Shown: piece by piece, positions 1 to 43,949 of the stretch | How the letters are laid out: each line of letters opens with the position of its first letter | How positions within the stretch are numbered: the stretch's first letter is position 1 | Assembly: GCA_036009105.1 (NCBI GenBank) | Contig: DASYMJ010000109.1 | Span: 1-53,565 of the forward strand | DNA from: Thermoanaerobaculia bacterium | GTDB lineage: Bacteria; Acidobacteriota; Thermoanaerobaculia; Gp7-AA8 | Length of the DNA stretch: 53,565 bases | Reading direction: 5' to 3' | Notes under the pieces: generated by a model | Told to the model about the DNA's origin: nothing | What the model saw: only the letters and a program-made list of their open reading frames with translations | Databases searched by the model: none | Translations under genes and position numbers: made by a program

Positions 1-600
1 TTTCAGGAGTTGCGCGTCGATCGAGTCGCCGGCGATCGTCAGCGTGCGCTGGTCTTCCTCGGTCGGGTAGCGGCCCTTCATGACGCAGAAGTCGGTCGTG
101 CCGGCGCCGATGTCGATGATCATCGTGTGCAGCAGCGCGTCGAGTCCATACGCGACGGCGAACGGCTCGGTCACGATCAGCAGGCTGTCGACGATGCCTT
201 TCATGGCGTTGCGCAGGTACTGCTTGTTCGTGCGCAGCGCGGCGGCCGGCACGCCGACCACGGCGCGCACCCGCGAGCTGCTCACCCGCCCGTTCGTGCT
301 CACCCCGACCAGCCCCAGGAGATGCTTGAGCAGCTCGCGGACGGCTTCCACGTCCTTCTCCGACCCTTCCTTGAGCAGGCCGCGCTCGAGCGGGCGGTGG
401 AGGTCGAGCATGGTGCGGTTGGCCACCGCCTCGTGGCCGATCAGGACGCTGCGCTTGAGGACTTTGCGCGCCACCATGTCCACCGGCCAGCCGACGAAGC
501 TGTCCACCAGGAAGCGCTCGCCGTTCGAGCCGGAGATGGCGCTGCGCGAGGTGCCGAGGTCGATGCCGACGTGGAGGAGCTCATTGGAGTCATTCAGCAT
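1..600 (-). CDS. MamK-like bacterial actin (MreB/MamK family ATPase), C-terminal part beyond the window edge
   Basis: Manual translation from ATG at 600, open to base 1: MLNDSNELLHVGIDLGTSRSAISGSNGERFLVDSFVGWPVDMVARKVLKRSVLIGHEA...VRAVVGVPAAA...IVTEPFAVAYGLDALLHTMIIDIGAGTTDFCVMKGRYPTEEDQRTLTIAGDSIDAQLLK. Actin phosphate-1 (GIDLGT), connect-1 (EPF) and phosphate-2 (DIGAGTTD) motifs are present. Purine-rich RBS (GAAGGGA) upstream. Not in the ORF track because it has no stop in the window. Confidence 0.88.
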   Translation of the reverse strand, partial: MLNDSNELLHVGIDLGTSRSAISGSNGERFLVDSFVGWPVDMVARKVLKRSVLIGHEAVANRTMLDLHRPLERGLLKEGSEKDVEAVRELLKHLLGLVGVSTNGRVSSSRVRAVVGVPAAALRTNKQYLRNAMKGIVDSLLIVTEPFAVAYGLDALLHTMIIDIGAGTTDFCVMKGRYPTEEDQRTLTIAGDSIDAQLLK

Positions 601-614
601 TCCGAAACTTCCCT

Positions 615-1601
615 TCATCCTTGATTCGCATACGACCGGATGCCGTGAAACAGCGCCTCCGCTATCTGCTGGCGATATTCGGCCCTTCCCAGCATGGAAG
701 CTTCCTTCTCATTGGAAAGGCATCCCACCTCGGCCAGGATGGCCGGCATCTCCGTCGCCACCAGGACGATGAACGGCGCGCGCTTCACCCCCCAGTTCTC
801 CAGCCCCGGATCGGACTTGCGCAGCTTCGTGAAGAGCTGCTGCTGGACGGCGGCGGCGAGCCGCTGCGACTCGCTGCGCCGCGCGTCGGCATAGACGCCG
901 TCGAGCAGCTTGCGCAGGTCGGCCAGCGAGTAGCCGGAGAGGCGGTTCTCATCCGCCGCGAGGCGGGTCAGCGAGGGATCGCTGGTGGGCCCGAGGTAGT
1001 AGGTCTCCACGCCGTGGCTGGCGGTGTGGGCCACGATGGAGTTGACGTGGATGGAGACGAAGATGTCGGAGGAGGACTCGTTGGCCAGCCGGGCCCGGTC
1101 GCGCAAGGGGATCAGCTTGTCGCCGCCGCGCGTGATCACCACCTGGAAGCCGTTCTTCTCCAGCATGGCTTTCAGGCGCGTGGCGACGTCGAGGGTGATG
1201 TCTTTCTCGGCCAGGCGGACGATGGAGGTGCCGGGGTCGGCGCCGCCGTGGCCGGCATCGATCACCACGCGCTTCACGGCCAGCGAAAAGGCGTGCGTGT
1301 CGAGCGGGGCCAGCGAGTCGACCGTCGGCCGCGCATTCGGCCGCGGCCGTGGATCAGCGGGAAGGACGGCGGCGCTGGCGATGGTGTCGTGCGGCTGGGC
1401 GGCAGGGCCGCCGTTGAAGTAAGTGGAGGCGGCGAGGGTGATCGGCACGAGGAGCAGCGGCGCGCGGCGGAGCCACATTTTGAGGATCCGGTTGGCGGGG
1501 CGCAGCGCGCGCGGCGGCCCTCCCCGCATCGTGTCGAGGTTCTCCGCGACCGCCTCTGCGAGCAGCCGCCGCTTCACCCGATCGACCGATTCCCGCCCCA
1601 T
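615..1601 (-). CDS. N-acetylmuramoyl-L-alanine amidase (Amidase_3) with an N-terminal membrane anchor
   Basis: Motifs VVIDAGHGG, AEKDITL, FVSIHVNS and ILAEVG supply the H/E/H zinc ligands and catalytic Glu. Start placed at ATG 1601 (MGRESVDRV), 8 nt after a TAGAAT box. Confidence 0.9.
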   Translation of the reverse strand: MGRESVDRVKRRLLAEAVAENLDTMRGGPPRALRPANRILKMWLRRAPLLLVPITLAASTYFNGGPAAQPHDTIASAAVLPADPRPRPNARPTVDSLAPLDTHAFSLAVKRVVIDAGHGGADPGTSIVRLAEKDITLDVATRLKAMLEKNGFQVVITRGGDKLIPLRDRARLANESSSDIFVSIHVNSIVAHTASHGVETYYLGPTSDPSLTRLAADENRLSGYSLADLRKLLDGVYADARRSESQRLAAAVQQQLFTKLRKSDPGLENWGVKRAPFIVLVATEMPAILAEVGCLSNEKEASMLGRAEYRQQIAEALFHGIRSYANQG

Positions 1602-1612
1602 CCCGCCACATT

Positions 1613-2545
1613 CTAACGTTTTAGCGGCTCGATGACGCTGTAGCGCCTCGTGGCCCCCACCCACGGGTCGACCAGCGAGACCTTGATGGTGTGGGGCAGC
1701 TTCGCCCCGGCGGCCTCCCGGTAGTCGGAATAGTCGGTCTGCTGCGGGATGCGCCCGATCGGCGTATCGGTGAGGACGACGCGGCGGATGAGCAGGCCGT
1801 CGGCGTCGAAGGTGAAGCGCTGATTGCCCGCGGCGAGGGTGGTGGCGTCGATCGCTCTGGCATCGGCCGGGATGTCTCGCGGCCTGATGAAGGCGAAGGC
1901 GCCGGCCAGCTGGTGCATGTTCTCCAACTGCCCGGCATTCATCGGCTTGCCGTTCACCGTGCCTTCCGTCGCGCCGAAGTCCTGCTCCACCTGGCCCACC
2001 TTCACCTGAAAGTGCTCCCCCTGCTGGGCGATCTCCAGCGGCTCCTGCTTGCCGTCCCATCCCTCCCGCGTCCCTTTCAGGGTGAGGTTGCCCAGCTTCG
2101 AGGTGTCGCCGATCGCGGCCGCATAGCGGGCGATGACGTCCTTCGGCGCCGGGCGCTGCGGCTTGTCCGGGGCGGGGGTGGGGAAGGGGGGCGCGGTCTG
2201 CGGCAGCGCCACGAGATTGACCGGCTTGAGCGCGCCGCGGTGGCAGGTGTAGCAGGAGACCACCGGCCGTCCCCCGAACGATTTCTCATTGAGCTCCCTG
2301 GTCAGGGCGATCATTTCCCGCCCCCGCTTCTTCTCCGGCTTCGCATCGCTGGCAAAGTCCCAGCCGTCTTTGTCGCTCACCACGTGGCAGTAGTCGCAAT
2401 GCGTGCCGATGGAGGCGCGCATCATGTTCATGGTGCGCTGGAGCTGGATCGGGGTGAGCCCCTCGAGCAACTGCACGTTTTTCGGCTGCTGGGCAAAGAG
2501 CGGCGCGGCGGCGATGAGCGCGGCGAGATACGCAAGCTTTCGCAT
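1613..2545 (-). CDS. Secreted diheme c-type cytochrome (photosynthetic reaction-centre cytochrome c subunit-like N-terminal domain)
   Basis: Signal peptide, PKNVQLL motif, two CxxCH sites (CDYCH, CYTCH), and an MNMM segment before the first heme as a candidate axial Met. Confidence 0.8.
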   Translation of the reverse strand: MRKLAYLAALIAAAPLFAQQPKNVQLLEGLTPIQLQRTMNMMRASIGTHCDYCHVVSDKDGWDFASDAKPEKKRGREMIALTRELNEKSFGGRPVVSCYTCHRGALKPVNLVALPQTAPPFPTPAPDKPQRPAPKDVIARYAAAIGDTSKLGNLTLKGTREGWDGKQEPLEIAQQGEHFQVKVGQVEQDFGATEGTVNGKPMNAGQLENMHQLAGAFAFIRPRDIPADARAIDATTLAAGNQRFTFDADGLLIRRVVLTDTPIGRIPQQTDYSDYREAAGAKLPHTIKVSLVDPWVGATRRYSVIEPLKR

Positions 2546-5541: not shown

Positions 5542-6168
5542 GTGCCGCGACCGAGACGACAGGGAACATCCCAATCATCATCATTGACCCATGGGCAGTC
5601 CAGTTACGTGCTGCAACGGTTGATCAAGGACCGCCGGGTTTCCGCCGGCGACATTCAGCGCTACGTCGGCGAGATGGCCCGCGAGATTGAAAGCCTCGAG
5701 CAGCAACTCGCCTCACTGCGCGCCGCTCATGGCGGCACCGGCACTGGCTCCGGGACCGGCACGGGTACCGGCTCCGGTACGGGCGCGGGCACCGGCACCG
5801 GACGCCGGCGGGGCAGACCGCCCGGACGGCGCAGCGGCGCCGCGGCCGGTACGGGTGCAGGCGGCGGTACGGGCGCCGGCGCGCCGGCGCGCCGCCGCGG
5901 CCGTCCGCCCGCTTCGGCGGGCGCGCAGAGCGGTGGCGAAGGCGAGGGGACGGGCGGTGGCGAACAGGCCGGCGCCGGTCGTCGCGGCCGCCGTGGACGC
6001 CGCGCCGCAATCACCCCCGAGCAGCTCGCCTCGCGCCAGCTGCAGGGCCGCTACCTGGCGCTCATCCGCCAGGTGCCGGAGAACCGCCGCGCACAGTACG
6101 CCAAGATCGCCAAGGAAAAGGGCCGCGAGGCTGCCATCAAGGAGCTTCAGGACGTCGTCAAGAAGTAA
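5542..6168 (+). CDS. Hypothetical basic protein with a coiled coil, Gly/Thr linker and AT-hook motifs (candidate nucleoid-associated protein)
   Basis: AAGGAGG RBS, own terminator, two RRRGRPP motifs plus RRGRRGRR, heptad-like MAREIESLEQQLASLRAA, and TG-repeat linker. Confidence 0.75.
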   Translation: MPRPRRQGTSQSSSLTHGQSSYVLQRLIKDRRVSAGDIQRYVGEMAREIESLEQQLASLRAAHGGTGTGSGTGTGTGSGTGAGTGTGRRRGRPPGRRSGAAAGTGAGGGTGAGAPARRRGRPPASAGAQSGGEGEGTGGGEQAGAGRRGRRGRRAAITPEQLASRQLQGRYLALIRQVPENRRAQYAKIAKEKGREAAIKELQDVVKK

Positions 6169-23517: not shown

Positions 23518-24564
23518 CTAGCCGACGTTCGCGACTGGCTGCACTTCGGACGGGGGAGACTGGCGTCGTTCGACCAGTGCCAACTGCACGGTACGGGTTC
23601 GCGTTGCGGGTTGCGCGAGGGCCTCGCGTACTCCCCCGGCGATTCGCTCTATGACCGGAACCACCACCGAGTTGCCGAACTGCTTGTAGGCTTGAGTATC
23701 GGAAACAACGATCCGGTAGGAATCGGGGTAGCCCATCAGGCGTGCGCATTCGCGCGGCGTCAGCCTGCGGGGGTTTTTGCCCTGCTGCGGGATCAAAATC
23801 TCGGATCCGTCTTTGTAGTAGCGAGCACTCAGCGTGCGCGTCGTTCCGTCGAGGTCCGCCAGACCATATCCGAAGCCGTTACCCGCGGATTGATGCTTGC
23901 GGGCGTAATCCTGCAGGTATTGCCAGAGCTTGTCACTGAGCGTGTATTTAGGGTCGACATTCGGTTGGAGCAGGTCTCGCAACTTTGGCCGCTGACCGGC
24001 TCTCGCCAGTTCCGGCCAGCGAAAATCGCGCGGCTCGCGGAAACCTACGATGAAGATCCGCTCCCGGTGTTGCGGGACGACGTCTCTCGCATCGACGATT
24101 CGGGAATGAACGTCGTACCCGAGCTCCTCGGTTAGAACGCGAAGGATGACATCGAAGGTCCGGCCATGGTCGTGCGTGAGGAGATTTCGAACGTTCTCTA
24201 GAATGAAAGCGCGCGGTCGATGGGCAGCGAGAATGCGCGCGATTTCGAAAAAGAGTGTTCCCTGGGTGCGGTCGGCGAACCCGTGTGGACGGCCGAGACT
24301 GTTTTTCTTCGACACGCCGGAAATAGAAAACGGCTGGCAGGGGAAGCCCGCGGTGAGAATGTCATGTTCCGGGATGTCTTTCTCGCCGACAGCCCGGATG
24401 TCTCCGGCGGGTTCGTCACCGAAGTTAGCCGCATAGGTCATGCGCGCGAAGCGGTCCCAGTCGGAAGAGAAAACACAGCTCGCACCCAGATGTTCGAGGG
24501 CGAGACGGAAGCCTCCGATCCCGGCGAATAGATCGATGAATCGGCAGGACTTGGAGGCGGTCAT
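23518..24564 (-). CDS. dcm: C5-cytosine DNA methyltransferase, Dcm/M.EcoRII-like
   Basis: FIDLFAGIGG, GFPCQPFS, ILENV, QHRERIFIVG, TLSARYYKDGSEILI, RRLTPRECARLMG and KQFGNSV. Confidence 0.93.
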   Translation of the reverse strand: MTASKSCRFIDLFAGIGGFRLALEHLGASCVFSSDWDRFARMTYAANFGDEPAGDIRAVGEKDIPEHDILTAGFPCQPFSISGVSKKNSLGRPHGFADRTQGTLFFEIARILAAHRPRAFILENVRNLLTHDHGRTFDVILRVLTEELGYDVHSRIVDARDVVPQHRERIFIVGFREPRDFRWPELARAGQRPKLRDLLQPNVDPKYTLSDKLWQYLQDYARKHQSAGNGFGYGLADLDGTTRTLSARYYKDGSEILIPQQGKNPRRLTPRECARLMGYPDSYRIVVSDTQAYKQFGNSVVVPVIERIAGGVREALAQPATRTRTVQLALVERRQSPPSEVQPVANVG

Positions 24565-24653
24565 CTGAAAAACAGAATACCTCGGCAGAGCGCGAATTCC
24601 GAGGCTTGTTTTCTTTCTCGCAGAAACTCCACGCCACGTAGAATCCTGAGGCC

Positions 24654-25070
24654 GTGGTCGACGTCCTTTCTCCAGCCCAGCGAAGGAAAAACATGCAGCG
24701 GATCCGGTCGAAGGATACGAAGCCGGAAATGCGCGTCCGCCGTCTCATCCATGCGCTCGGTTACCGCTATCGTCTGCACGGACGCGACCTGCCGGGAAAG
24801 CCTGATCTCGTGTTCCGAAGCCGCCGGAAGGTGATCTTCGTCCACGGTTGCTACTGGCATGTTCACGACTGCCGATTGGGCCGGGTTGCGCCAGTAACGA
24901 ATGCCGAATTCTGGCGAGTGAAGCGGCAGGGCAATGTGCTCCGCGACAAGATCAACATGGCGCGTCTTCGCAGCGACGGATGGCAGGCGCTGGTGCTTTG
25001 GCAATGTGAGACTTCCGATTCGGAACGCCTCGTAGCTCGGATTCACCGATTTCTCGGGAGTGACCGATGA
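24654..25070 (+). CDS. vsr: Very short patch repair endonuclease
   Basis: DVLSPAQRRKNMQRIRSKDTKPE, LPGKPD, FVHGCYWH and WQCET. Confidence 0.95.
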   Translation: MVDVLSPAQRRKNMQRIRSKDTKPEMRVRRLIHALGYRYRLHGRDLPGKPDLVFRSRRKVIFVHGCYWHVHDCRLGRVAPVTNAEFWRVKRQGNVLRDKINMARLRSDGWQALVLWQCETSDSERLVARIHRFLGSDR

Positions 25071-26290
25071 CGTTATCTCTGGCCTCGGTCTTTGCTGCGA
25101 TTGCTGCAAAACGACTGGCTCTGGTCGATCTTCCGAAACACGGCTCGAATCAGCATGAGCTGAACGGATCGGCTCGGCTGCGGGAGTTCTTCAGCGAAGA
25201 AATGGTCAGCGGTGATCTGCAATGGCATTACTTCGCAGAAGGCGACGAGCCGGCACATGCCGCCGGCACGTTTACGTTCTACGACTCGCGGTTGAAAAGC
25301 GCTGACCGGACCGGACGCTCCGAGTGGCGGATGTATTACACCGGCGACTTCCTGGCGCGTGCGGCTCCAGGCGATTTGTTGATCCTCGCTCGCACGCGGT
25401 CGGAAGACATTCATGCGCTCGTCTTCGAGGGCGGCTCGAGCTGGATGCGCTCCGCCCAAGTCCTTTTTGAAGTGGATAGTGATCAGCGCCGCTTCGAGGT
25501 GATCGGCGAAAACGAACTGGATCGTCACACCGTCGAATTCGTCTCGGCACAGATCATCGACGAGCTCCAGCTCGATATCGAGCTGCCCCAGGCCGTCGAC
25601 GTCGAGGCACTTGCCGAACGGGAGCTTCGACGCGCTCGAGCTGAGGGGCTTGCCTTCCCCTCGGCGGCGAGAATGGCGGTCGTCGCGAGGGAGACCGTGA
25701 TGACGGATCTGACCGACGCGGACAGTACGCTGCTGCGGTGGCTCGAAACCGAGGAGCAGGTTTTTCGCGCTGTTGAACGTCTCGTCGTGGAGGTCAAGCT
25801 GCAGAGCGGGTTCGCCGGTGTCGACGACTTCATCAAGTATTCGCTGTCAGTACAAAACCGGCGCAAATCGCGAATGGGGCTGGCGCTGCAAAACCATCTC
25901 GCGGAGATCTTTCGGCTAAAAGGGCTTCGGTTCGACGCGCAGGCGTTCACCGAAAACCGCAAACGTCCTGACTTTTTGTTTCCCGGAACGGCGTCCTACC
26001 ACGATCCGACGTTCGATCCCGCGAGGCTCACGATGCTCGCCGCCAAGTCGTCATGCAAAGAGAGATGGACACAAGTCCTGACGGAAGCAACTCGGATCCC
26101 GACCAAACATCTGTGTACGCTCGAGACGTCCATCTCTCACTTCCAGATGGAGGAGATGCGTCGACAAGGTGTTCTTCTGGTGATTCCTGCCCCTCTTCAC
26201 GCCACCTACACGTCGTCGCAACTGAAGAACACGCATACGCTGCACAGTTTCATCGAGTTCGTTCGCGGCATCGAGAGCCTCACTCGATGA
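25067..26290 (+). CDS. Type II restriction endonuclease, EcoRII-like
   Basis: C-terminal NRRKSRMG, KRPDFLFPG and AKSSCKERWTQVLTEA resemble the EcoRII catalytic domain; N-terminal KRL...SNQHE...YDSR resembles an effector domain. Linked to dcm and vsr. Confidence 0.85.
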   Translation: MTLSLASVFAAIAAKRLALVDLPKHGSNQHELNGSARLREFFSEEMVSGDLQWHYFAEGDEPAHAAGTFTFYDSRLKSADRTGRSEWRMYYTGDFLARAAPGDLLILARTRSEDIHALVFEGGSSWMRSAQVLFEVDSDQRRFEVIGENELDRHTVEFVSAQIIDELQLDIELPQAVDVEALAERELRRARAEGLAFPSAARMAVVARETVMTDLTDADSTLLRWLETEEQVFRAVERLVVEVKLQSGFAGVDDFIKYSLSVQNRRKSRMGLALQNHLAEIFRLKGLRFDAQAFTENRKRPDFLFPGTASYHDPTFDPARLTMLAAKSSCKERWTQVLTEATRIPTKHLCTLETSISHFQMEEMRRQGVLLVIPAPLHATYTSSQLKNTHTLHSFIEFVRGIESLTR

Positions 26291-38443: not shown

Positions 38444-39502
38444 GTGTTCTTCTCAAAGAGCAAAAACGTTGTCGGCCTTGATATCGGCTCCTCGGCAATC
38501 AAACTGGTAGAGCTGAAGGAGAAGAAGGGCGGGGCCTACTCACTCGTCAAGCTCGGCATCGAGCGGCTGTCTCCCGAAGCCATCGTTGACGGCTCGATCA
38601 TGGACTCCTCCATGGTCGTGGAAACGATTCAGCGGCTGAACACGGAAAAAGGCGTCAAGAATTCCAATTACGCGACCTCCCTGTCCGGCCATTCGGTGAT
38701 CATCAAAAAGATCACTTTGCCGGCCATGTCGCCGGAGGAGCTGGCCGAGTCGATCCAGTGGGAGGCGGAGCAGTACATCCCCTTCGACATCAACGACGTC
38801 AACCTCGACTACGTCCCCCTCACCGCCCCCGGCACGGGCGACAACATCGACGTCATCCTGGTGGCCGTGAAGAAGGAAAAGATCAACGACTACACCTCGG
38901 TGATCAGCCAGACCGGCAAGGTGCCGGTGCTGGTGGACGTGGACGCCTTCGCGCTGCAGAACTGCTACGAGGTGAACCACGAGGTGGACGGCGACAAGGT
39001 CATCGCCCTGGTCAACGTCGGCGCCTCGGTGACGAACGTGAACGTCCTGTCCGGGCAGATCTCGCTCTTCTGGCGCGACATCACCTTCGGAGGCAACCAG
39101 TACACCGACGCCATCCAGCGCGAGCTGAGCCTCTCCTTCGAGCAGGCGGAAGAGCTCAAGCGGGGCCACCCGGTGGCCGACTACACCATCCAGCAGGTCA
39201 TCCCCATCCTCAACTCCGTCTCCGAGGACTTCGCCGGCGAGCTGCGCAAGACGCTCGACTTCTTCACCGCGACCTCGGGAGCGGACCGCGTGGACGAGAT
39301 CGTCCTGGCCGGCGGCGGCAGCGGGGTGCTGAACCTCGACGCGATCCTGCGCGACAAGTTCGGCATCTCGGTCACGATCATGGATCCGTTCCGGAAGATC
39401 GCCGTCGATGAAGGCGAGTTCAACCCCGAGGAACTGGCCGAGATTGCGCCCAGTATGGCGATCGCCGTCGGTCTGGCCATGCGGAAGTTGGGGGACGCTT
39501 GA
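38444..39502 (+). CDS. pilM: Type IV pilus assembly protein PilM
   Basis: VGLDIGSSAIKLVEL, AEQYIPF, VDVDAFAL, NVGAS, GGNQYT, LAGGGS and AVGLAMR. Confidence 0.96.
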   Translation: MFFSKSKNVVGLDIGSSAIKLVELKEKKGGAYSLVKLGIERLSPEAIVDGSIMDSSMVVETIQRLNTEKGVKNSNYATSLSGHSVIIKKITLPAMSPEELAESIQWEAEQYIPFDINDVNLDYVPLTAPGTGDNIDVILVAVKKEKINDYTSVISQTGKVPVLVDVDAFALQNCYEVNHEVDGDKVIALVNVGASVTNVNVLSGQISLFWRDITFGGNQYTDAIQRELSLSFEQAEELKRGHPVADYTIQQVIPILNSVSEDFAGELRKTLDFFTATSGADRVDEIVLAGGGSGVLNLDAILRDKFGISVTIMDPFRKIAVDEGEFNPEELAEIAPSMAIAVGLAMRKLGDA

Positions 39503-40185
39503 TCAAGATCAACTTAGTGCGGGAAGGGCGGGCGGTTCGCGGCGCGGGAGCCGTGGCCCAACCGGCCGTCACCCCCATGGCGGGCGGCGGCGGGACGGAC
39601 ATCAACAGCATCCTCATCGTGCTCCTGCTCGTGGTGGGAGGCCTCATCGCCGGCGCCTGGTGGTGGATGGAGAAGCGCAAGCTCAACGAGCGCGAGGAAA
39701 CCATCACCGTGCGCAAGGCGGAGGCCGAGAAGCTGGAGGCCATCATCCGCGACGTGGAGCAGTACCAGAAGCGCAAGGACAACCTCCAGAAGCGCATCGA
39801 CCTGATCAACCAGCTCAAGCAGAACCAGCGCGGCCCGGTCCGGATCATGGACCAGGTCAGCCGCGACCTTCCCGACCTGGTCTGGCTGGACAAGATGACC
39901 ATCAACAACGGGAGCATCGCTCTGCAGGGACGCGGTCTGAACCCGAACGCCATCGCCAACTTCGTGGAGAACATCAAGAACGATCCGTACTTCGAGGAGC
40001 CGCAGGTCGGCTCCATGACGCAGACGTCCGTGGCGCCGCTGGTCTACACGTTCGACATGAGCTTCGGCTTCTCGTACGCGCCGAAGACGGCGGAAGGCTC
40101 TGCCGGCGCAACGTCGACGACCGGCACCACCGGGAGCACCGGAACGGCGGGCACCACCGCCGCGCCGGGCGGGGCGAAGCCGTAA
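39499..40185 (+). CDS. pilN: Type IV pilus assembly protein PilN
   Basis: MIKINL N-terminal motif, TM helix, coiled coil, and LPDLVWL. Confidence 0.92.
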   Translation: MIKINLVREGRAVRGAGAVAQPAVTPMAGGGGTDINSILIVLLLVVGGLIAGAWWWMEKRKLNEREETITVRKAEAEKLEAIIRDVEQYQKRKDNLQKRIDLINQLKQNQRGPVRIMDQVSRDLPDLVWLDKMTINNGSIALQGRGLNPNAIANFVENIKNDPYFEEPQVGSMTQTSVAPLVYTFDMSFGFSYAPKTAEGSAGATSTTGTTGSTGTAGTTAAPGGAKP

Positions 40186-40198
40186 GGGGAGGGGGCCG

Positions 40199-40828
40199 AT
40201 GGCGCTGACACTGGAAGGAAAACCCTGGTACTACGGCTTCCTGATCGGACTCCTGCTCGCGGGCGTGGGGCTGTACGCTCTCTATTATTTCTACATCACC
40301 CCGACGGAAGAGGACATCGCCGGCAAGGACGCCCAGATCGCGGAGCTGGACCGGAAGATCGAACAGGGGCGGGCCGCGGAGCGGAAGCTCCCCCAGTTCC
40401 GGGCCGAGGTGGCGCGCCTGGAGCTGGAGCTCGACAAGCTGCGCCGCATCCTGCCTTCCTCCCGCAACACGGAAGAGATCATCAAGAAACTCAAGGCGCT
40501 GGTCGACACGGGCGACTTCGCCCTCAAGCGCCTCACCTTCCCCGTCCTGACCACGCCGAAGGGGGGCGACCCCTACGCGGAGTGGCCCATCTCGGTCTCG
40601 GTGGAGGGGCGGTACCACAACCTGGCGATCCTCTTCAATCGCCTGAGCAACTTCTCGCGCATCATCAACGTGGAGCAGATCAACATCTCGGCGCTGGCCA
40701 GCCAGACCGACCGCACCATCAGCACCGACTTCGTGGCCAAGACGTTCGTCTACGTCGAGCCGGCGGAGGAGAAGCCGAAGGCGAAGACGAAAGGAAAGCC
40801 GGGCGGGTCGTCCGGGGACGGGGACTAA
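40199..40828 (+). CDS. pilO: Type IV pilus assembly protein PilO
   Basis: TM plus coiled coil, RRILPS, YAEWPISVSVEGRYHNL and SRIINV. Confidence 0.92.
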   Translation: MALTLEGKPWYYGFLIGLLLAGVGLYALYYFYITPTEEDIAGKDAQIAELDRKIEQGRAAERKLPQFRAEVARLELELDKLRRILPSSRNTEEIIKKLKALVDTGDFALKRLTFPVLTTPKGGDPYAEWPISVSVEGRYHNLAILFNRLSNFSRIINVEQINISALASQTDRTISTDFVAKTFVYVEPAEEKPKAKTKGKPGGSSGDGD

Positions 40829-40831
40829 CGG

Positions 40832-41371
40832 ATGAACATGCGCAGGTTCGCCCAGTCGCTGCTGCTGGTGACGCTCGCCGTCGCCGGCGTGCTCGCGCAG
40901 CCGGTCGGCTCCAGACCGGCGGGAGGTCCGCCCCCTTCCACCACGACCGCCAACACGGCGGCCGACAATGCCGGCGTGCAGCAGACGCTTCAGGAGATCC
41001 TGGAGGAGCCGACCACCGGCGAGACGTACCGCTACGACCCGCAGGGGCGGCGCGATCCGTTCCAGTCGCTGGTCGGGCCGGCGCCGCGCCTGCAGCCGGG
41101 GCAGCGTCCGCCGGGCATCCCCGGGTTCCTCATCGATGAGCTCAAGCTGCAGGGAGTGGTCAAGACCAAACAGGGGCTCGTTGCCATGATCAACGGGCCG
41201 GACAACAAGGGTTACCTCGTTCACGTGGGAGACAAAGTCCTCGATGGCGAAGTGATTCGCATTACGGCCTCCTCCATCGTCTTCCGGCAGGAGGTCAATG
41301 ATCCGACTCAGATCGAGCGGTACCGCGAGGTAGTCAAGGACCTGATCCCCGAGGCGCAACGGAAGGGCTAG
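40832..41371 (+). CDS. pilP: Type IV pilus assembly protein PilP-like
   Basis: YDPQGRRDPF, ELKLQGVV, GYLVHVGD and GEVIRIT; lies between pilO and pilQ. Confidence 0.85.
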   Translation: MNMRRFAQSLLLVTLAVAGVLAQPVGSRPAGGPPPSTTTANTAADNAGVQQTLQEILEEPTTGETYRYDPQGRRDPFQSLVGPAPRLQPGQRPPGIPGFLIDELKLQGVVKTKQGLVAMINGPDNKGYLVHVGDKVLDGEVIRITASSIVFRQEVNDPTQIERYREVVKDLIPEAQRKG

Positions 41372-41399
41372 TCAGGTCAGGGGCTGTGTGGAGGGCGAG

Positions 41400-43949
41400 A
41401 TGGTGAAGGTGGGACGTATGACAAGAGCCAGGCGATTCGTGCTCGTAGCGGGCATCGTGGTGGCGAGTGCGAGTCTGGACTCCGCTTCCGCATCGCTGTG
41501 GAAGCGCGCGAAGACCGACAAGACTGCCGAGCCGGCAGCCGTGGCGGCAGCAGGGCAGACCCTTTCCGCCGTGGAGATCGAAGGATCGCGGGTTCTGCTG
41601 CACACGAGCGGCTCTCCGGCGTACACCTCGTACAGCCCTTCGCCCGACGTATTCGTGGTCGATCTGACCGCCACCTCGAAGGCCTCCGGCGTGGTCATCC
41701 CCGCCACCCTCCCCGCCGGCGTCACCTCGATCGCCGCGGAGGAAGCGGTGGAGATGGGCAACCGGCTCACCCGGGTGACCGTGCGCCTGCGCGAGGCGGC
41801 CTCGCCGACGGCCTCCGTCAATGGGACGGACGTGGTGATCGCCATCCCGGAGAAGGCGCCGGTCGACACCGTGCCGCCGCTCGTGGCGGCCGTGGCCGAT
41901 CCGCAGCCGCCGCCCGAGACGCCGCATGCCGAGACGCCGCATGTGGAGGCGCTTCCGGAACCGAACCGCATCCCCGCCGAGCCGGTGGCCACGGCCGAGC
42001 CGCTGCCGCTCCCCGCCGCGAAATCCATCCGCCGCATCGAGAGCTCCGGCGCCGACATCCGCATCAACGGCGACGGCGCGATGAAGTACAAGGCCTTCCG
42101 CCTGGAGAACCCCTCGCGCGTGGTGCTCGACATCGACGGCATCAACAAGCTTCCGAAGAACGCCATCACCATCAACGACTCGCCGGTCAAAAAGGTCCGG
42201 GTGTCGCAGTTCAAGTCCGGCCCCGAGCCGGTGACGCGGGTGGTGCTCGATCTCGGCTCGAAGGCGGACTATCGCCTGGTCGATGAAGGCGACCACGTGA
42301 CGGTCGTCTTCGGCGATGCGCCGGCCACGTTCGCCGCCGCGCCGGTGGTGGAGCGGCAGGCGCCCGTGCAGAAGACGATCGCGCCGCCTCCCCCGCCCGC
42401 GCCGGCCACCGCCGCCGCGAGCACGATGACGGTGACCGAGCGGCCGGCGCACAAGACCGACATCCCGGCCAGCGTGCCGACGGTGGCCGAGAACGCCGCC
42501 ACCTGGCGCATGCCGGAGACGGCGTCCAAAGGCGCCCGCTCCAAGATCAACGCGCCGGCCGACCAGGCGCCGCCTGCCACCAGCCGCCGCCAGCGCACCA
42601 CCACCTCGACGCCGGTGCCGGCGCCCTCCAACGCCAATCCGGAAAACGTCTTCACCGAGCCGCAGGACCTCTCCGGCCCGCAGATCCAGAACGCCACCAC
42701 GCCGCAGGGCACGCGGACGCTGAGCGAAGGCCCCCGTGTCTTCACCGGCGAGCCGATCTCGCTCAACCTCAAGGACGCCGACCTCAAGGACGTCCTGCGC
42801 ACCTTCGCCCAGCTCACCGGCCTGAACATCGCCGTCGATCCGGGCGTGACCGGCCAGGTCACGGTCGATTTCGTCGACGTGCCGTGGGACCAGGCGCTGG
42901 ACATCATCCTCCGCCAGAACAACCTCGCCTTCGTGGTGGAAGGCAACGTGATGCGCGTCGGCACCATCGAGCGCCTGGCCAACGAGACGGCCGCCACGCG
43001 GCGGCTGCAGGAGGAAGAGCAGCTCAACGTGCCGCGGCGCACCATCAGCTTCAAGCTCTCCTACGCGCGGGCCCAGGAAGTCCAGGCCCTGCTGGCCGCC
43101 ATCGCCTCGCCGCGCGCGCGGATCATCGTCGACGCGCGCACGAACCAGCTCATCGTCAGCGAGATCCCGCAGTACCTGGTGACCATGCGCAACCTCATCG
43201 ACACGGTGGACGTGCCGACCAAGCAGGTGGTGATCGAGGCGCGCATCGTCGAGACCACGAAGAACTTCGCGCAGCAGTACGGCTTCCAGTGGGGCTTCAA
43301 CGGCGCCTTCGACCCGGCCCTGGGCACGGGCACGGGCCTCGTGTTCCCCAACCGGGTCGGCTTCACCGGCGGCCCGTTCAGCTTCACCGGCGGCGCCCCT
43401 CCGGTTCTGGGTCTGAGCCTGACGGACGTTCTCGGCTCCTTCAACCTCGACCTCGCCCTGCACGCGTTCGAGCTGGAGGGCCTGGTCAAGGTCGTCTCCG
43501 CGCCGCGCGTGACCACGCAGGACAACCAGGCCGCCGAGATCCAGAGCGGCTTCCAGATCCCGTACCAGACCCGGATCAACTTCACCACCACCATCACCTA
43601 CGTCGACGCCACGCTGCGGCTGTCCGTCACGCCGCAGATCACCGAGGCGGGGACGGTGATCATGGACATCGCGGTGCAGAAGACGGAGCCGGCCACCGGT
43701 CTGGCCATCGAAGGAGGCGCCGGCACGCCGCTCTCCACCCGCCAGGCGCGGACGCGCCTCATGGTGCGCGACGGCGGCACCTCGGTCATCGGCGGCATCT
43801 ACCAGACCAAAGACAACAACAGCCAGTCGCGCTTGCCGTTCGTGCACCAGATCCCGATCATCGGCGCGCTGTTCCGGACGCACAACATCTCGTCCACCCA
43901 TGACGAGCTGTTGATTTTCATCACCCCGCGCATCGTTCGCGGGTCGTAA
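41400..43949 (+). CDS. pilQ: Type IV pilus secretin PilQ with AMIN domains
   Basis: AMIN-like repeats (SPDVFVVDL, NPSRVVLDI), ISLNLKDAD, VPWDQALD, QVVIEARIVE and LPFVHQIPIIGALF...ELLIFITPRI. Start 41388 or 41400. Confidence 0.96.
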   Translation: MVKVGRMTRARRFVLVAGIVVASASLDSASASLWKRAKTDKTAEPAAVAAAGQTLSAVEIEGSRVLLHTSGSPAYTSYSPSPDVFVVDLTATSKASGVVIPATLPAGVTSIAAEEAVEMGNRLTRVTVRLREAASPTASVNGTDVVIAIPEKAPVDTVPPLVAAVADPQPPPETPHAETPHVEALPEPNRIPAEPVATAEPLPLPAAKSIRRIESSGADIRINGDGAMKYKAFRLENPSRVVLDIDGINKLPKNAITINDSPVKKVRVSQFKSGPEPVTRVVLDLGSKADYRLVDEGDHVTVVFGDAPATFAAAPVVERQAPVQKTIAPPPPPAPATAAASTMTVTERPAHKTDIPASVPTVAENAATWRMPETASKGARSKINAPADQAPPATSRRQRTTTSTPVPAPSNANPENVFTEPQDLSGPQIQNATTPQGTRTLSEGPRVFTGEPISLNLKDADLKDVLRTFAQLTGLNIAVDPGVTGQVTVDFVDVPWDQALDIILRQNNLAFVVEGNVMRVGTIERLANETAATRRLQEEEQLNVPRRTISFKLSYARAQEVQALLAAIASPRARIIVDARTNQLIVSEIPQYLVTMRNLIDTVDVPTKQVVIEARIVETTKNFAQQYGFQWGFNGAFDPALGTGTGLVFPNRVGFTGGPFSFTGGAPPVLGLSLTDVLGSFNLDLALHAFELEGLVKVVSAPRVTTQDNQAAEIQSGFQIPYQTRINFTTTITYVDATLRLSVTPQITEAGTVIMDIAVQKTEPATGLAIEGGAGTPLSTRQARTRLMVRDGGTSVIGGIYQTKDNNSQSRLPFVHQIPIIGALFRTHNISSTHDELLIFITPRIVRGS

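Follow-up and report, generated by a model that had tools for sequence, protein, structure and literature searches.

An actin-like gene that resembles mamK, lying at the edge of an acidobacterial contig with no magnetosome genes in view, raises the question of whether it marks the border of an unusual magnetosome cluster or encodes a filament with some other task. The window analysed here, a 53,565-nucleotide stretch of contig DASYMJ010000109.1 from a Thermoanaerobaculia bacterium, carries at its left end an ORF that starts at an ATG (positions 600-598), runs for 200 codons without a stop and continues past the edge, leaving the C-terminal ~145 amino acids of this copy outside. The three N-terminal actin ATPase motifs that the original prediction had attributed to it, phosphate-1, connect-1 and phosphate-2, were all located in the translation (Table 1), and D163 and G165 of the phosphate-2 motif occupy invariant columns of our actin alignment (A1). 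The MamK-like strings quoted in support of that prediction (S.VG.P.D; LDL..PL..G.L.E.S..D.E..R.LL.H; AV.GVPA.A...NK; EPF.V.YGLD...DIGAGTTD.C..KG..P..EDQ.TLT.AG) are likewise present and align residue by residue with solved MamK. Against NCBIfam profiles, the 200-residue fragment scored 216 bits with MamK (E = 6e-64, profile positions 1-186 of 335), 116 bits with BeeR and 42 bits with MreB; the MamK match is far beyond chance and bears out the claim that the protein lies nearer to MamK than to MreB. Pfam returned MreB_Mbl as the sole significant match (43 bits), and public annotation of the orthologs at JGI and NCBI reads 'rod shape-determining protein MreB', a label that follows from Pfam holding MreB_Mbl but no MamK model. 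The nearest loci all belong to Thermoanaerobaculia/Acidobacteriota MAGs, in agreement with the acidobacterium-like host proposed from the sequence.

Full-length orthologs provide the part of the protein that the window lacks. Ortholog P0003, from a JGI soil metagenome contig, is intact at 345 amino acids and 98% identical over the shared 200 residues, and the stop-to-stop frames of orthologs from ~80 species-level Thermoanaerobaculia (Acidobacteriota) genomes span 338-357 codons; a frameshift in the downstream part, which had been named beforehand as a possible objection, thus finds no sign in the relatives. P0003 retains the adenosine motif SGGGGLIRGL and an intact C-terminal part, so that all five actin ATPase motifs are covered. 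Judged by sequence conservation, the actin-like gene is under very strong constraint, with 85-98% identity across the class, alongside 86% for AdoHcy hydrolase and 62% for the amidase described below. In sequence searches against solved structures, P0003 scored 267 bits with MamK, 123 with BeeR and ~50 with MreB. An AF2 model of P0003 (pLDDT 91.7) gave the MamK filament protomer 5LJV_A as its top Foldseek match (TM 0.91/0.97, rmsd 1.4 Å), followed by TM values of 0.85 to BeeR and ~0.79 to MreB. The substitution A278D abolishes polymerisation of AMB-1 MamK, and a Glu stands at the corresponding position here; we dropped this as a worry for polymerisation because E, D, S or P is found at the same site in many genuine magnetotactic MamKs.

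By both sequence and fold, then, the best-matching actin family is MamK, followed by BeeR, with MreB well below. That the gene encodes canonical MreB, as the JGI and NCBI label and the only significant Pfam match would have it, or a ParM/Alp-type actin for plasmid or phage partition, we regard as next to impossible. MreB shares the actin fold and the public annotation label with the clade actin, but the latter reaches only 42-72 bits on MreB models with cutoffs of 293-366 (for full-length proteins, 69.5 against 293 and 62.8 against 365.75), its fold lies closer to MamK (TM 0.91) than to MreB (~0.79), and neither mreC nor mreD follows it. A full protein nested within canonical MreB and followed by mreC/mreD, the outcome that had been held to speak against a MamK-like identity, was accordingly not what we found: the scores are far under the cutoffs and the downstream genes are ordinary. 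Partition by a ParM/Alp-type actin was rejected on other grounds, since tblastn against 72,556 plasmids and 50,697 phages gave no match at E <= 1e-10; the gene is not mobile, and its chromosomal synteny is stable.

A MamK relative might also be expected at the edge of a magnetosome or magnetosome-like cluster, and the original prediction had considered this for the window. Besides the match of family and fold to MamK, such an origin could draw on the ~42% identity of the clade to Magnetospirillum MamK, near the ~40% seen for genuine Nitrospirota MamK; because these values are so similar, percent identity alone is no criterion of MamK membership. The gene surroundings argue otherwise. A search with 313 ORFs that flank mamK in 8 magnetotactic loci matched nothing in the window but MamK itself (plus antisense shadow ORFs), confirming that no mam genes are in view there, and the same 313-ORF search found neither mam homologs nor a mam-like neighbourhood at the gene in 160-162 orthologous loci. 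Three of the magnetotactic flank ORFs gave weak matches in 1 to 44 other loci, with best identities of 24-41%, and no flank ORF has a conserved counterpart beside the actin-like gene in the 162 loci. The genes that lie past the window edge in relatives are ordinary and variable, among them a zinc alcohol dehydrogenase (ADH_zinc), an O-methyltransferase and an alpha/beta hydrolase (about 30 loci). A Pfam scan of 35 window proteins returned only housekeeping, pilus, restriction-modification and signalling genes, including succinate dehydrogenase/fumarate reductase, PqiAB, a Dcm/EcoRII restriction-modification pair, RelA/SpoT, pilMNOPQ and biotin carboxylase. Our literature search found no report of a magnetosome cluster in Acidobacteriota; the papers that contain both terms concern other subjects, as judged by their titles and abstracts. 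Together with a tree in which the clade never joins magnetotactic MamKs (below), these observations make a magnetosome cluster at this edge very improbable, and the edge gene is not magnetosome-related.

The position of the protein within the MamK superfamily was assessed with a survey of one genome per species, mostly MAGs, in which the other MamK-like lineages were covered as a sample. Relatives are few at the level of protein representatives, only 188 of which were recovered at E <= 1e-30 from 1.84 billion searched. Among the matches listed in the genome scan, the superfamily comprises magnetotactic MamKs and many lineages without known magnetotaxis, such as Planctomycetota, Gemmatimonadota, Beggiatoaceae and even archaeal MAGs; mamK-like genes in Beggiatoaceae have been reported before (bioRxiv 10.1101/2022.04.11.487978). 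In a neighbour-joining tree with 200 bootstraps and an MreB outgroup, the window protein sits alongside Thermoanaerobaculia, Holophagales, Binatia, Rokubacteria/Methylomirabilia, Entotheonellaceae and 'Deltaproteobacteria' MAGs in a clade supported by 99% of bootstraps. The sister group (75% bootstrap) consists of Gemmatimonadota plus one Schekmanbacteria and one Nitrospirae MAG. Grouping of the clade with proteobacterial-type magnetotactic MamKs occurred in 0 of 200 neighbour-joining replicates. On the NCBIfam MamK model (NF040964), the full-length orthologs P0003, P0011 and P0067 scored 371.9, 372.5 and 381.7 bits, below the curated cutoff of 400 bits, whereas AMB-1 (Magnetospirillum) MamK scores 543.5; other MamK-like clades range from ~371 to 426 bits and form a continuum across that cutoff. 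The same full-length orthologs scored ~70 bits on MreB models.

Compared with MamK itself (5LJV/5JYG; NF040964), the clade actin has all the ATPase motifs, a similar length and a short N-terminus before phosphate-1, but it differs in having no mam/mad neighbours, in forming its own branch and in scoring 372-382 bits where the cutoff is 400. The protein is thus MamK by resemblance and falls slightly short of strict membership. The proposal of a MamK-clade filament repurposed for another job holds in substance, in that the protein belongs to the MamK superfamily by sequence and fold, is not MreB and has no mreC/mreD; the word 'repurposed' asks more than a separate branch, found inside magnetotactic clades in 0 of 200 replicates, can tell, as evolution may have run in either direction. 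The score, too, lies just below the cutoff. BeeR, the three-stranded tubular actin of Verrucomicrobiota (8R2N), is described in the available text of PMC11929497 as polymerising with ATP, as 25-30% identical to MamK and as carrying a disordered N-terminal domain of ~35 amino acids. The clade actin is more distant from BeeR than from MamK, with 28% identity in the fold match, 200-212 bits against a cutoff of 530 on the BeeR model, and only 8-11 residues before phosphate-1, which leaves no place for the ~35-residue N-terminal domain.

What sets the clade apart is its gene neighbour, an informative feature that the original prediction did not remark on. An Amidase_3 gene adjoins the actin-like gene upstream on the same strand in all 150 loci with room to show it, namely the window, 74 of 74 close loci and 75 of 75 more distant orthologous loci. 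The distant set, in which the actin is 59-69% identical, includes Binatia, Rokubacteria/Methylomirabilia, Entotheonellaceae and Holophagales MAGs, and every neighbour other than the amidase has changed in it; clustering of neighbours, done with a GC3 filter against the spurious Arg-rich ORFs typical of high-GC DNA, revealed no further conserved one. Of 77 further sampled MamK-like loci with room, exactly 5 have the amidase, and these are the sister clade of the tree; the other 72 lack it, and no sampled magnetotactic MamK locus has a peptidoglycan amidase beside it. The pair in the sister clade was seen in Gemmatimonadota, Schekmanbacteria and a Nitrospirae MAG, and a later scan extended it to a further two MAGs of Gemmatimonadota and to two of Gammaproteobacteria; one Poseidoniales and one Planctomycetota locus had no amidase neighbour. 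In search of a cultured host, a Gemmatimonadota-type query matched MAGs only. The two-gene linkage spans at least seven phylum-level lineages, and since the tree clade and the synteny coincide, we treat these proteins as one group, the 'amidase-associated MamK-like' subfamily.

Table 1 Features of the actin-amidase locus in the window. Coordinates are window positions; amino-acid (aa) positions refer to the encoded protein.
Feature	Position	Strand	Basis
N-terminal 200 aa of MamK-superfamily actin-like ATPase (amidase-associated clade)	1..600	(-)	Stop-free translation and NCBIfam scores
Connect-1 motif EPFAVAYG, aa 145-152	145..168	(-)	Glu aligns with Glu of the MamK SEPF motif
Phosphate-2 motif IIDIGAGTTD, aa 161-170	91..120	(-)	Aligned with MamK
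Phosphate-1 motif GIDLGTS, aa 12-18	547..567	(-)	Aligns with MamK GIDLGTS
Spacer of 14 nt from amidase stop to mamK-like ATG	601..614	(-)	Junction sequence ATCAAGGATGAAGGGAAGTTTCGGAATG
Membrane-anchored N-acetylmuramoyl-L-alanine amidase (anchor predicted), 328 aa, conserved partner	615..1601	(-)	Pfam Amidase_3, 160 bits
Amidase_3 catalytic domain, aa 109-327	621..1277	(-)	Alignment to AmiB/AmiA
AmiA/B/C-type regulatory insertion, aa 204-260	822..992	(-)	Aligns with LAESENK of AmiB 3NE8 and with AmiA 8C2O
Hydrophobic membrane-anchor segment, aa 47-62, APLLLVPITLAASTYF	1416..1463	(-)	Basic stretch before the anchor
Conserved N-terminal cytoplasmic helix motif, aa 7-27, DRVKRRLLAEAVAENLDTMRG	1521..1583	(-)	Predicted; proposed filament-docking peptide
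c-type cytochrome (CytoC_RC-like, non-photosynthetic type)	1613..2545	(-)	Pfam CytoC_RC, 48.6 bits; NCBIfam c_type_nonphoto, 76.5 bits

The short spacer between the two genes, together with the purine-rich AAGGGAAG that spans and trails the amidase stop codon, looks like an operon arrangement at the sequence level. The two genes lie about -34 to +22 nt apart in 70 of the 74 close relatives and 56-208 nt apart in the other four. We caution that conserved adjacency can stem from co-regulation alone. The MamK family and non-magnetosome relatives of MamK are already known; a search combining MamK with the amidase name found no literature that links a MamK-like protein to an amidase, and this clade appears to be undescribed, as do its breadth and its fixed pairing with an amidase.

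The partner enzyme itself is unusual in its N-terminal part. In our amidase alignment (A2) the positions for metal binding and catalysis, H118, E132, H185 and E291, do not vary, and its nearest solved relatives, the cell-separation amidases AmiB (3NE8) and AmiA (8C2O), each align in one continuous match, whereas amidases that lack the regulatory insertion (CwlV, CwlD-like) match in two pieces. The insertion contains the invariant residues E218-N219 within LAADENR (alignment A2) and an SGY motif. In AmiB and AmiC the matching helix occludes the active site until an activator displaces it, and by analogy the window enzyme would be an auto-inhibited amidase of the AmiA/B/C type; no LytM-type activator turned up next to it. 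Amidases of this type are exported by a Tat/Sec signal peptide, and AmiB and AmiC also bear an AMIN targeting domain. The window protein instead (Pfam gave no AMIN match) has a conserved segment of ~45 residues, predicted to be cytoplasmic, then a hydrophobic anchor and a linker that varies. Residues 1-46 include 12 K/R and 5 D/E, and this charge distribution predicts an N-in topology, with the helix in the cytoplasm and the catalytic domain in the periplasm. The closest relatives have a short hydrophobic segment (~16 residues, after an RR pair), so the N-terminus may be a cleavable signal peptide; distant orthologs have longer hydrophobic segments at the same place. A single-sequence structure model of the amidase reached a pLDDT of only 40 and was discarded as unusable.

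Within the N-terminal segment, 126 of the 141 partner amidases carry the core motif [KR]xx[LIVM][LIVM]xx[AMV][VIFAM]xxN and most of the others a near-variant of it, against a background of 6 chance matches in 473,424 amino acids of neighbouring ORFs. Across phyla the K, A and N of the motif vary little or not at all (alignment A2), it is kept in Binatia, Rokubacteria and Entotheonellaceae even though the periplasmic linker is unconserved, and no Pfam family covers it.

These observations lead us to the reading that the edge gene encodes a non-magnetosome ATPase of the MamK superfamily, invariably downstream of an anchored AmiA/B/C-type amidase, whose filaments position or regulate the amidase through its N-terminal helix; we give this reading roughly even odds (a probability of about 0.5). 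The actin-like protein would, by homology, polymerise with ATP into MamK-like cytoplasmic filaments, and these would bind the cytoplasmic helix of the amidase. Binding would then position, cluster or switch on the periplasmic enzyme where the wall must be cut, and could in this way set the site and time of its action in cell separation or wall remodelling. MamK, whose ATP-dependent, two-stranded non-staggered filaments organise magnetosomes, itself lacks a membrane-binding element and relies on adaptors, and the short N-terminus of the clade actin fits a MamK-like need for such an adaptor. A stronger form, which we offer as tentative and somewhat doubtful, is that the filament docks onto the helix of a single-pass amidase and thereby places or allosterically activates peptidoglycan cleavage, the two genes forming a self-contained module. 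If so, a 'cytoskeleton-guided wall hydrolase' module would extend across Acidobacteriota, Binatota, Methylomirabilota, Entotheonellaceae, Gemmatimonadota and others, and might replace the FtsEX-EnvC/NlpD route of amidase control.

An alternative interpretation is that the filament works on something other than the amidase, for instance by positioning another inclusion or organelle or by organising the cell in general, as proposed for saltatorellin and BeeR, and that the amidase is merely co-transcribed. MamK-like proteins of non-magnetotactic bacteria do without an amidase neighbour in 72 of 77 loci with room, and other roles have been proposed for such proteins in the available text of bioRxiv 10.1101/817700 and PMC11929497, but we consider this interpretation unlikely because the pairing is perfect over 150 loci despite total loss of other synteny across phyla, and because a clade-specific conserved cytoplasmic helix has no obvious use to a periplasmic enzyme. 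More improbable still is that these bacteria use the MamK-like protein as their principal actin for morphogenesis or division, in place of MreB or FtsA, and that the amidase acts as its effector in remodelling the wall. Identity of 85-98% across a class is what a core cytoskeletal gene would show, MreB is already the public annotation label, and neither a second actin-like gene in 1.23 Mb of window and loci nor an MreB-like match in 3.1 Mb of loci was found; however, the DNA sampled amounts to ~0.3% of each genome, which makes the absence of mreB there uninformative. Moreover, mreBCD and rodA have been reported in other Acidobacteria (PMC8787282), and Saltatorellota possess MreB as well as a MamK-like protein, according to the available text of bioRxiv 10.1101/817700.

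Guidance of the amidase by the filament, the reading that we prefer, has partial precedents. MreBH directs LytE in Bacillus subtilis, and FtsA-FtsN and FtsEX-EnvC control AmiA/B/C in Escherichia coli. By analogy, the logic proposed here would be the same, with a cytoplasmic actin-like polymer setting the place or time of wall hydrolase action, but there the connection is indirect and the genes form no fixed pair, whereas the window amidase has its own predicted cytoplasmic helix and anchor and is encoded beside the actin. BeeR and saltatorellin, the latter reported from Saltatorellota to form filaments in E. coli (bioRxiv 10.1101/817700, available text), resemble the clade actin as MamK-related actins of non-magnetotactic bacteria whose function presumably differs from that of MamK; they differ in that no amidase partner is mentioned in the available text of either source (PMC11929497; bioRxiv 10.1101/817700). 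Neither of these recently described relatives has an assigned function, and the amidase-linked clade comes with a functional clue.

Taken together, the results suggest an undescribed partnership of a cytoskeletal filament with a wall hydrolase in soil Acidobacteriota and several other phyla. An invariant amidase with a cytoplasmic handle yields a testable hypothesis on how bacteria aim their wall hydrolases, in a clade that is abundant (at least 160 species-level genomes) and belongs to soil and sediment lineages with almost no cell biology. Because its actin is mislabelled as MreB, rod shape or an MreB elongasome may be wrongly inferred from the genomes of these lineages, and the use of mamK as a marker of magnetotaxis has to reckon with close relatives in non-magnetotactic bacteria. 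The cytochrome gene listed in Table 1 lies outside the conserved module: it was found upstream in 0 of 80 more distant orthologous loci and in only 28 close relatives. In the window it ends 11 nt upstream of the amidase gene, with which it is probably co-transcribed.

The entire clade to which the MamK-like gene belongs (proteins P0002-P0120 from the database searches, orthologous loci L001-L162) is named 'rod shape-determining protein MreB' in both JGI and NCBI annotation, and MreB models score only ~60-70 bits on its members. For lineages that carry this clade, inferences of the kind 'MreB is present, hence the cell is rod-shaped' may be unreliable. Apart from the MamK-like protein, PilM is the sole protein of the window with an actin fold. 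It is encoded in a type IV pilus assembly cluster with PilN, the secretin PilQ and two short open reading frames (ORFs), and was not picked up when the window was searched with the MamK-like query.

MamK-like domains also occur in other architectures and under archaeal taxonomic labels. In the representative-protein search, P0132-P0153 formed a well-separated clade in which the MamK-like domain lies at the C terminus of proteins of 523-1232 aa, whose long N-terminal parts contain no Pfam domains; these proteins may correspond to the Planctomycetota MamK-like loci of the genome scan. In P0192 (768 aa), which shares 48% identity with Magnetospirillum MamK, an FtsZ/tubulin GTPase (aa 4-307) is naturally fused to an actin domain of the MamK type (aa 435-753). 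Among the matches listed, loci L188, L242 and L249 are MamK-like genes, with ~40% identity to MamK, in metagenome-assembled genomes labelled Methanoperedens, Methanobacteriota and Poseidoniales, archaeal labels that may reflect binning error.

Features of the window and of the related locus L081
Feature	Location	Strand	Remark
c-type cytochrome	window 1613-2545		11 nt upstream of the amidase
208-aa ORF	window 5542-6168		contains Arg-rich segments as well as long runs of Gly-Thr/Gly-Ser/Gly-Ala repeats (GTGSGTGTGTGSGTGAGTG)
C5 cytosine DNA methylase	window 23518-24564	minus	
EcoRII-type endonuclease	window 25067-26290	plus	
Type IV pilus assembly cluster	window 38444-43949		
PilM	window 38444-39502		
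PilN	window 39499-40185		
PilQ secretin	window 41388-43949		with AMIN domain
TIR and TPR protein, 878 aa	L081 4656-7292		~2.6 kb downstream of the MamK-like gene

Next to the amidase-MamK-like module, the cytochrome is of a non-photosynthetic type with kinship to the family of photosynthetic reaction-centre cytochromes, and its position upstream of the amidase recurs in 28 close relatives. In the closest relative (L081), the TIR and TPR protein has a domain make-up of a defence-like kind; it was not found at the remaining orthologous loci compared.

Elsewhere in the window, the methylase adjoins the EcoRII-type endonuclease, and the region that they span (23518-26290) has the appearance of a restriction-modification island gained by horizontal transfer, because third-position GC in the two genes is 0.66-0.70, whereas that of the genes around them is ~0.9. 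The repeat-rich 208-aa ORF, which had no match in a Pfam search, has a weaker third-position GC signal than the genes around it.
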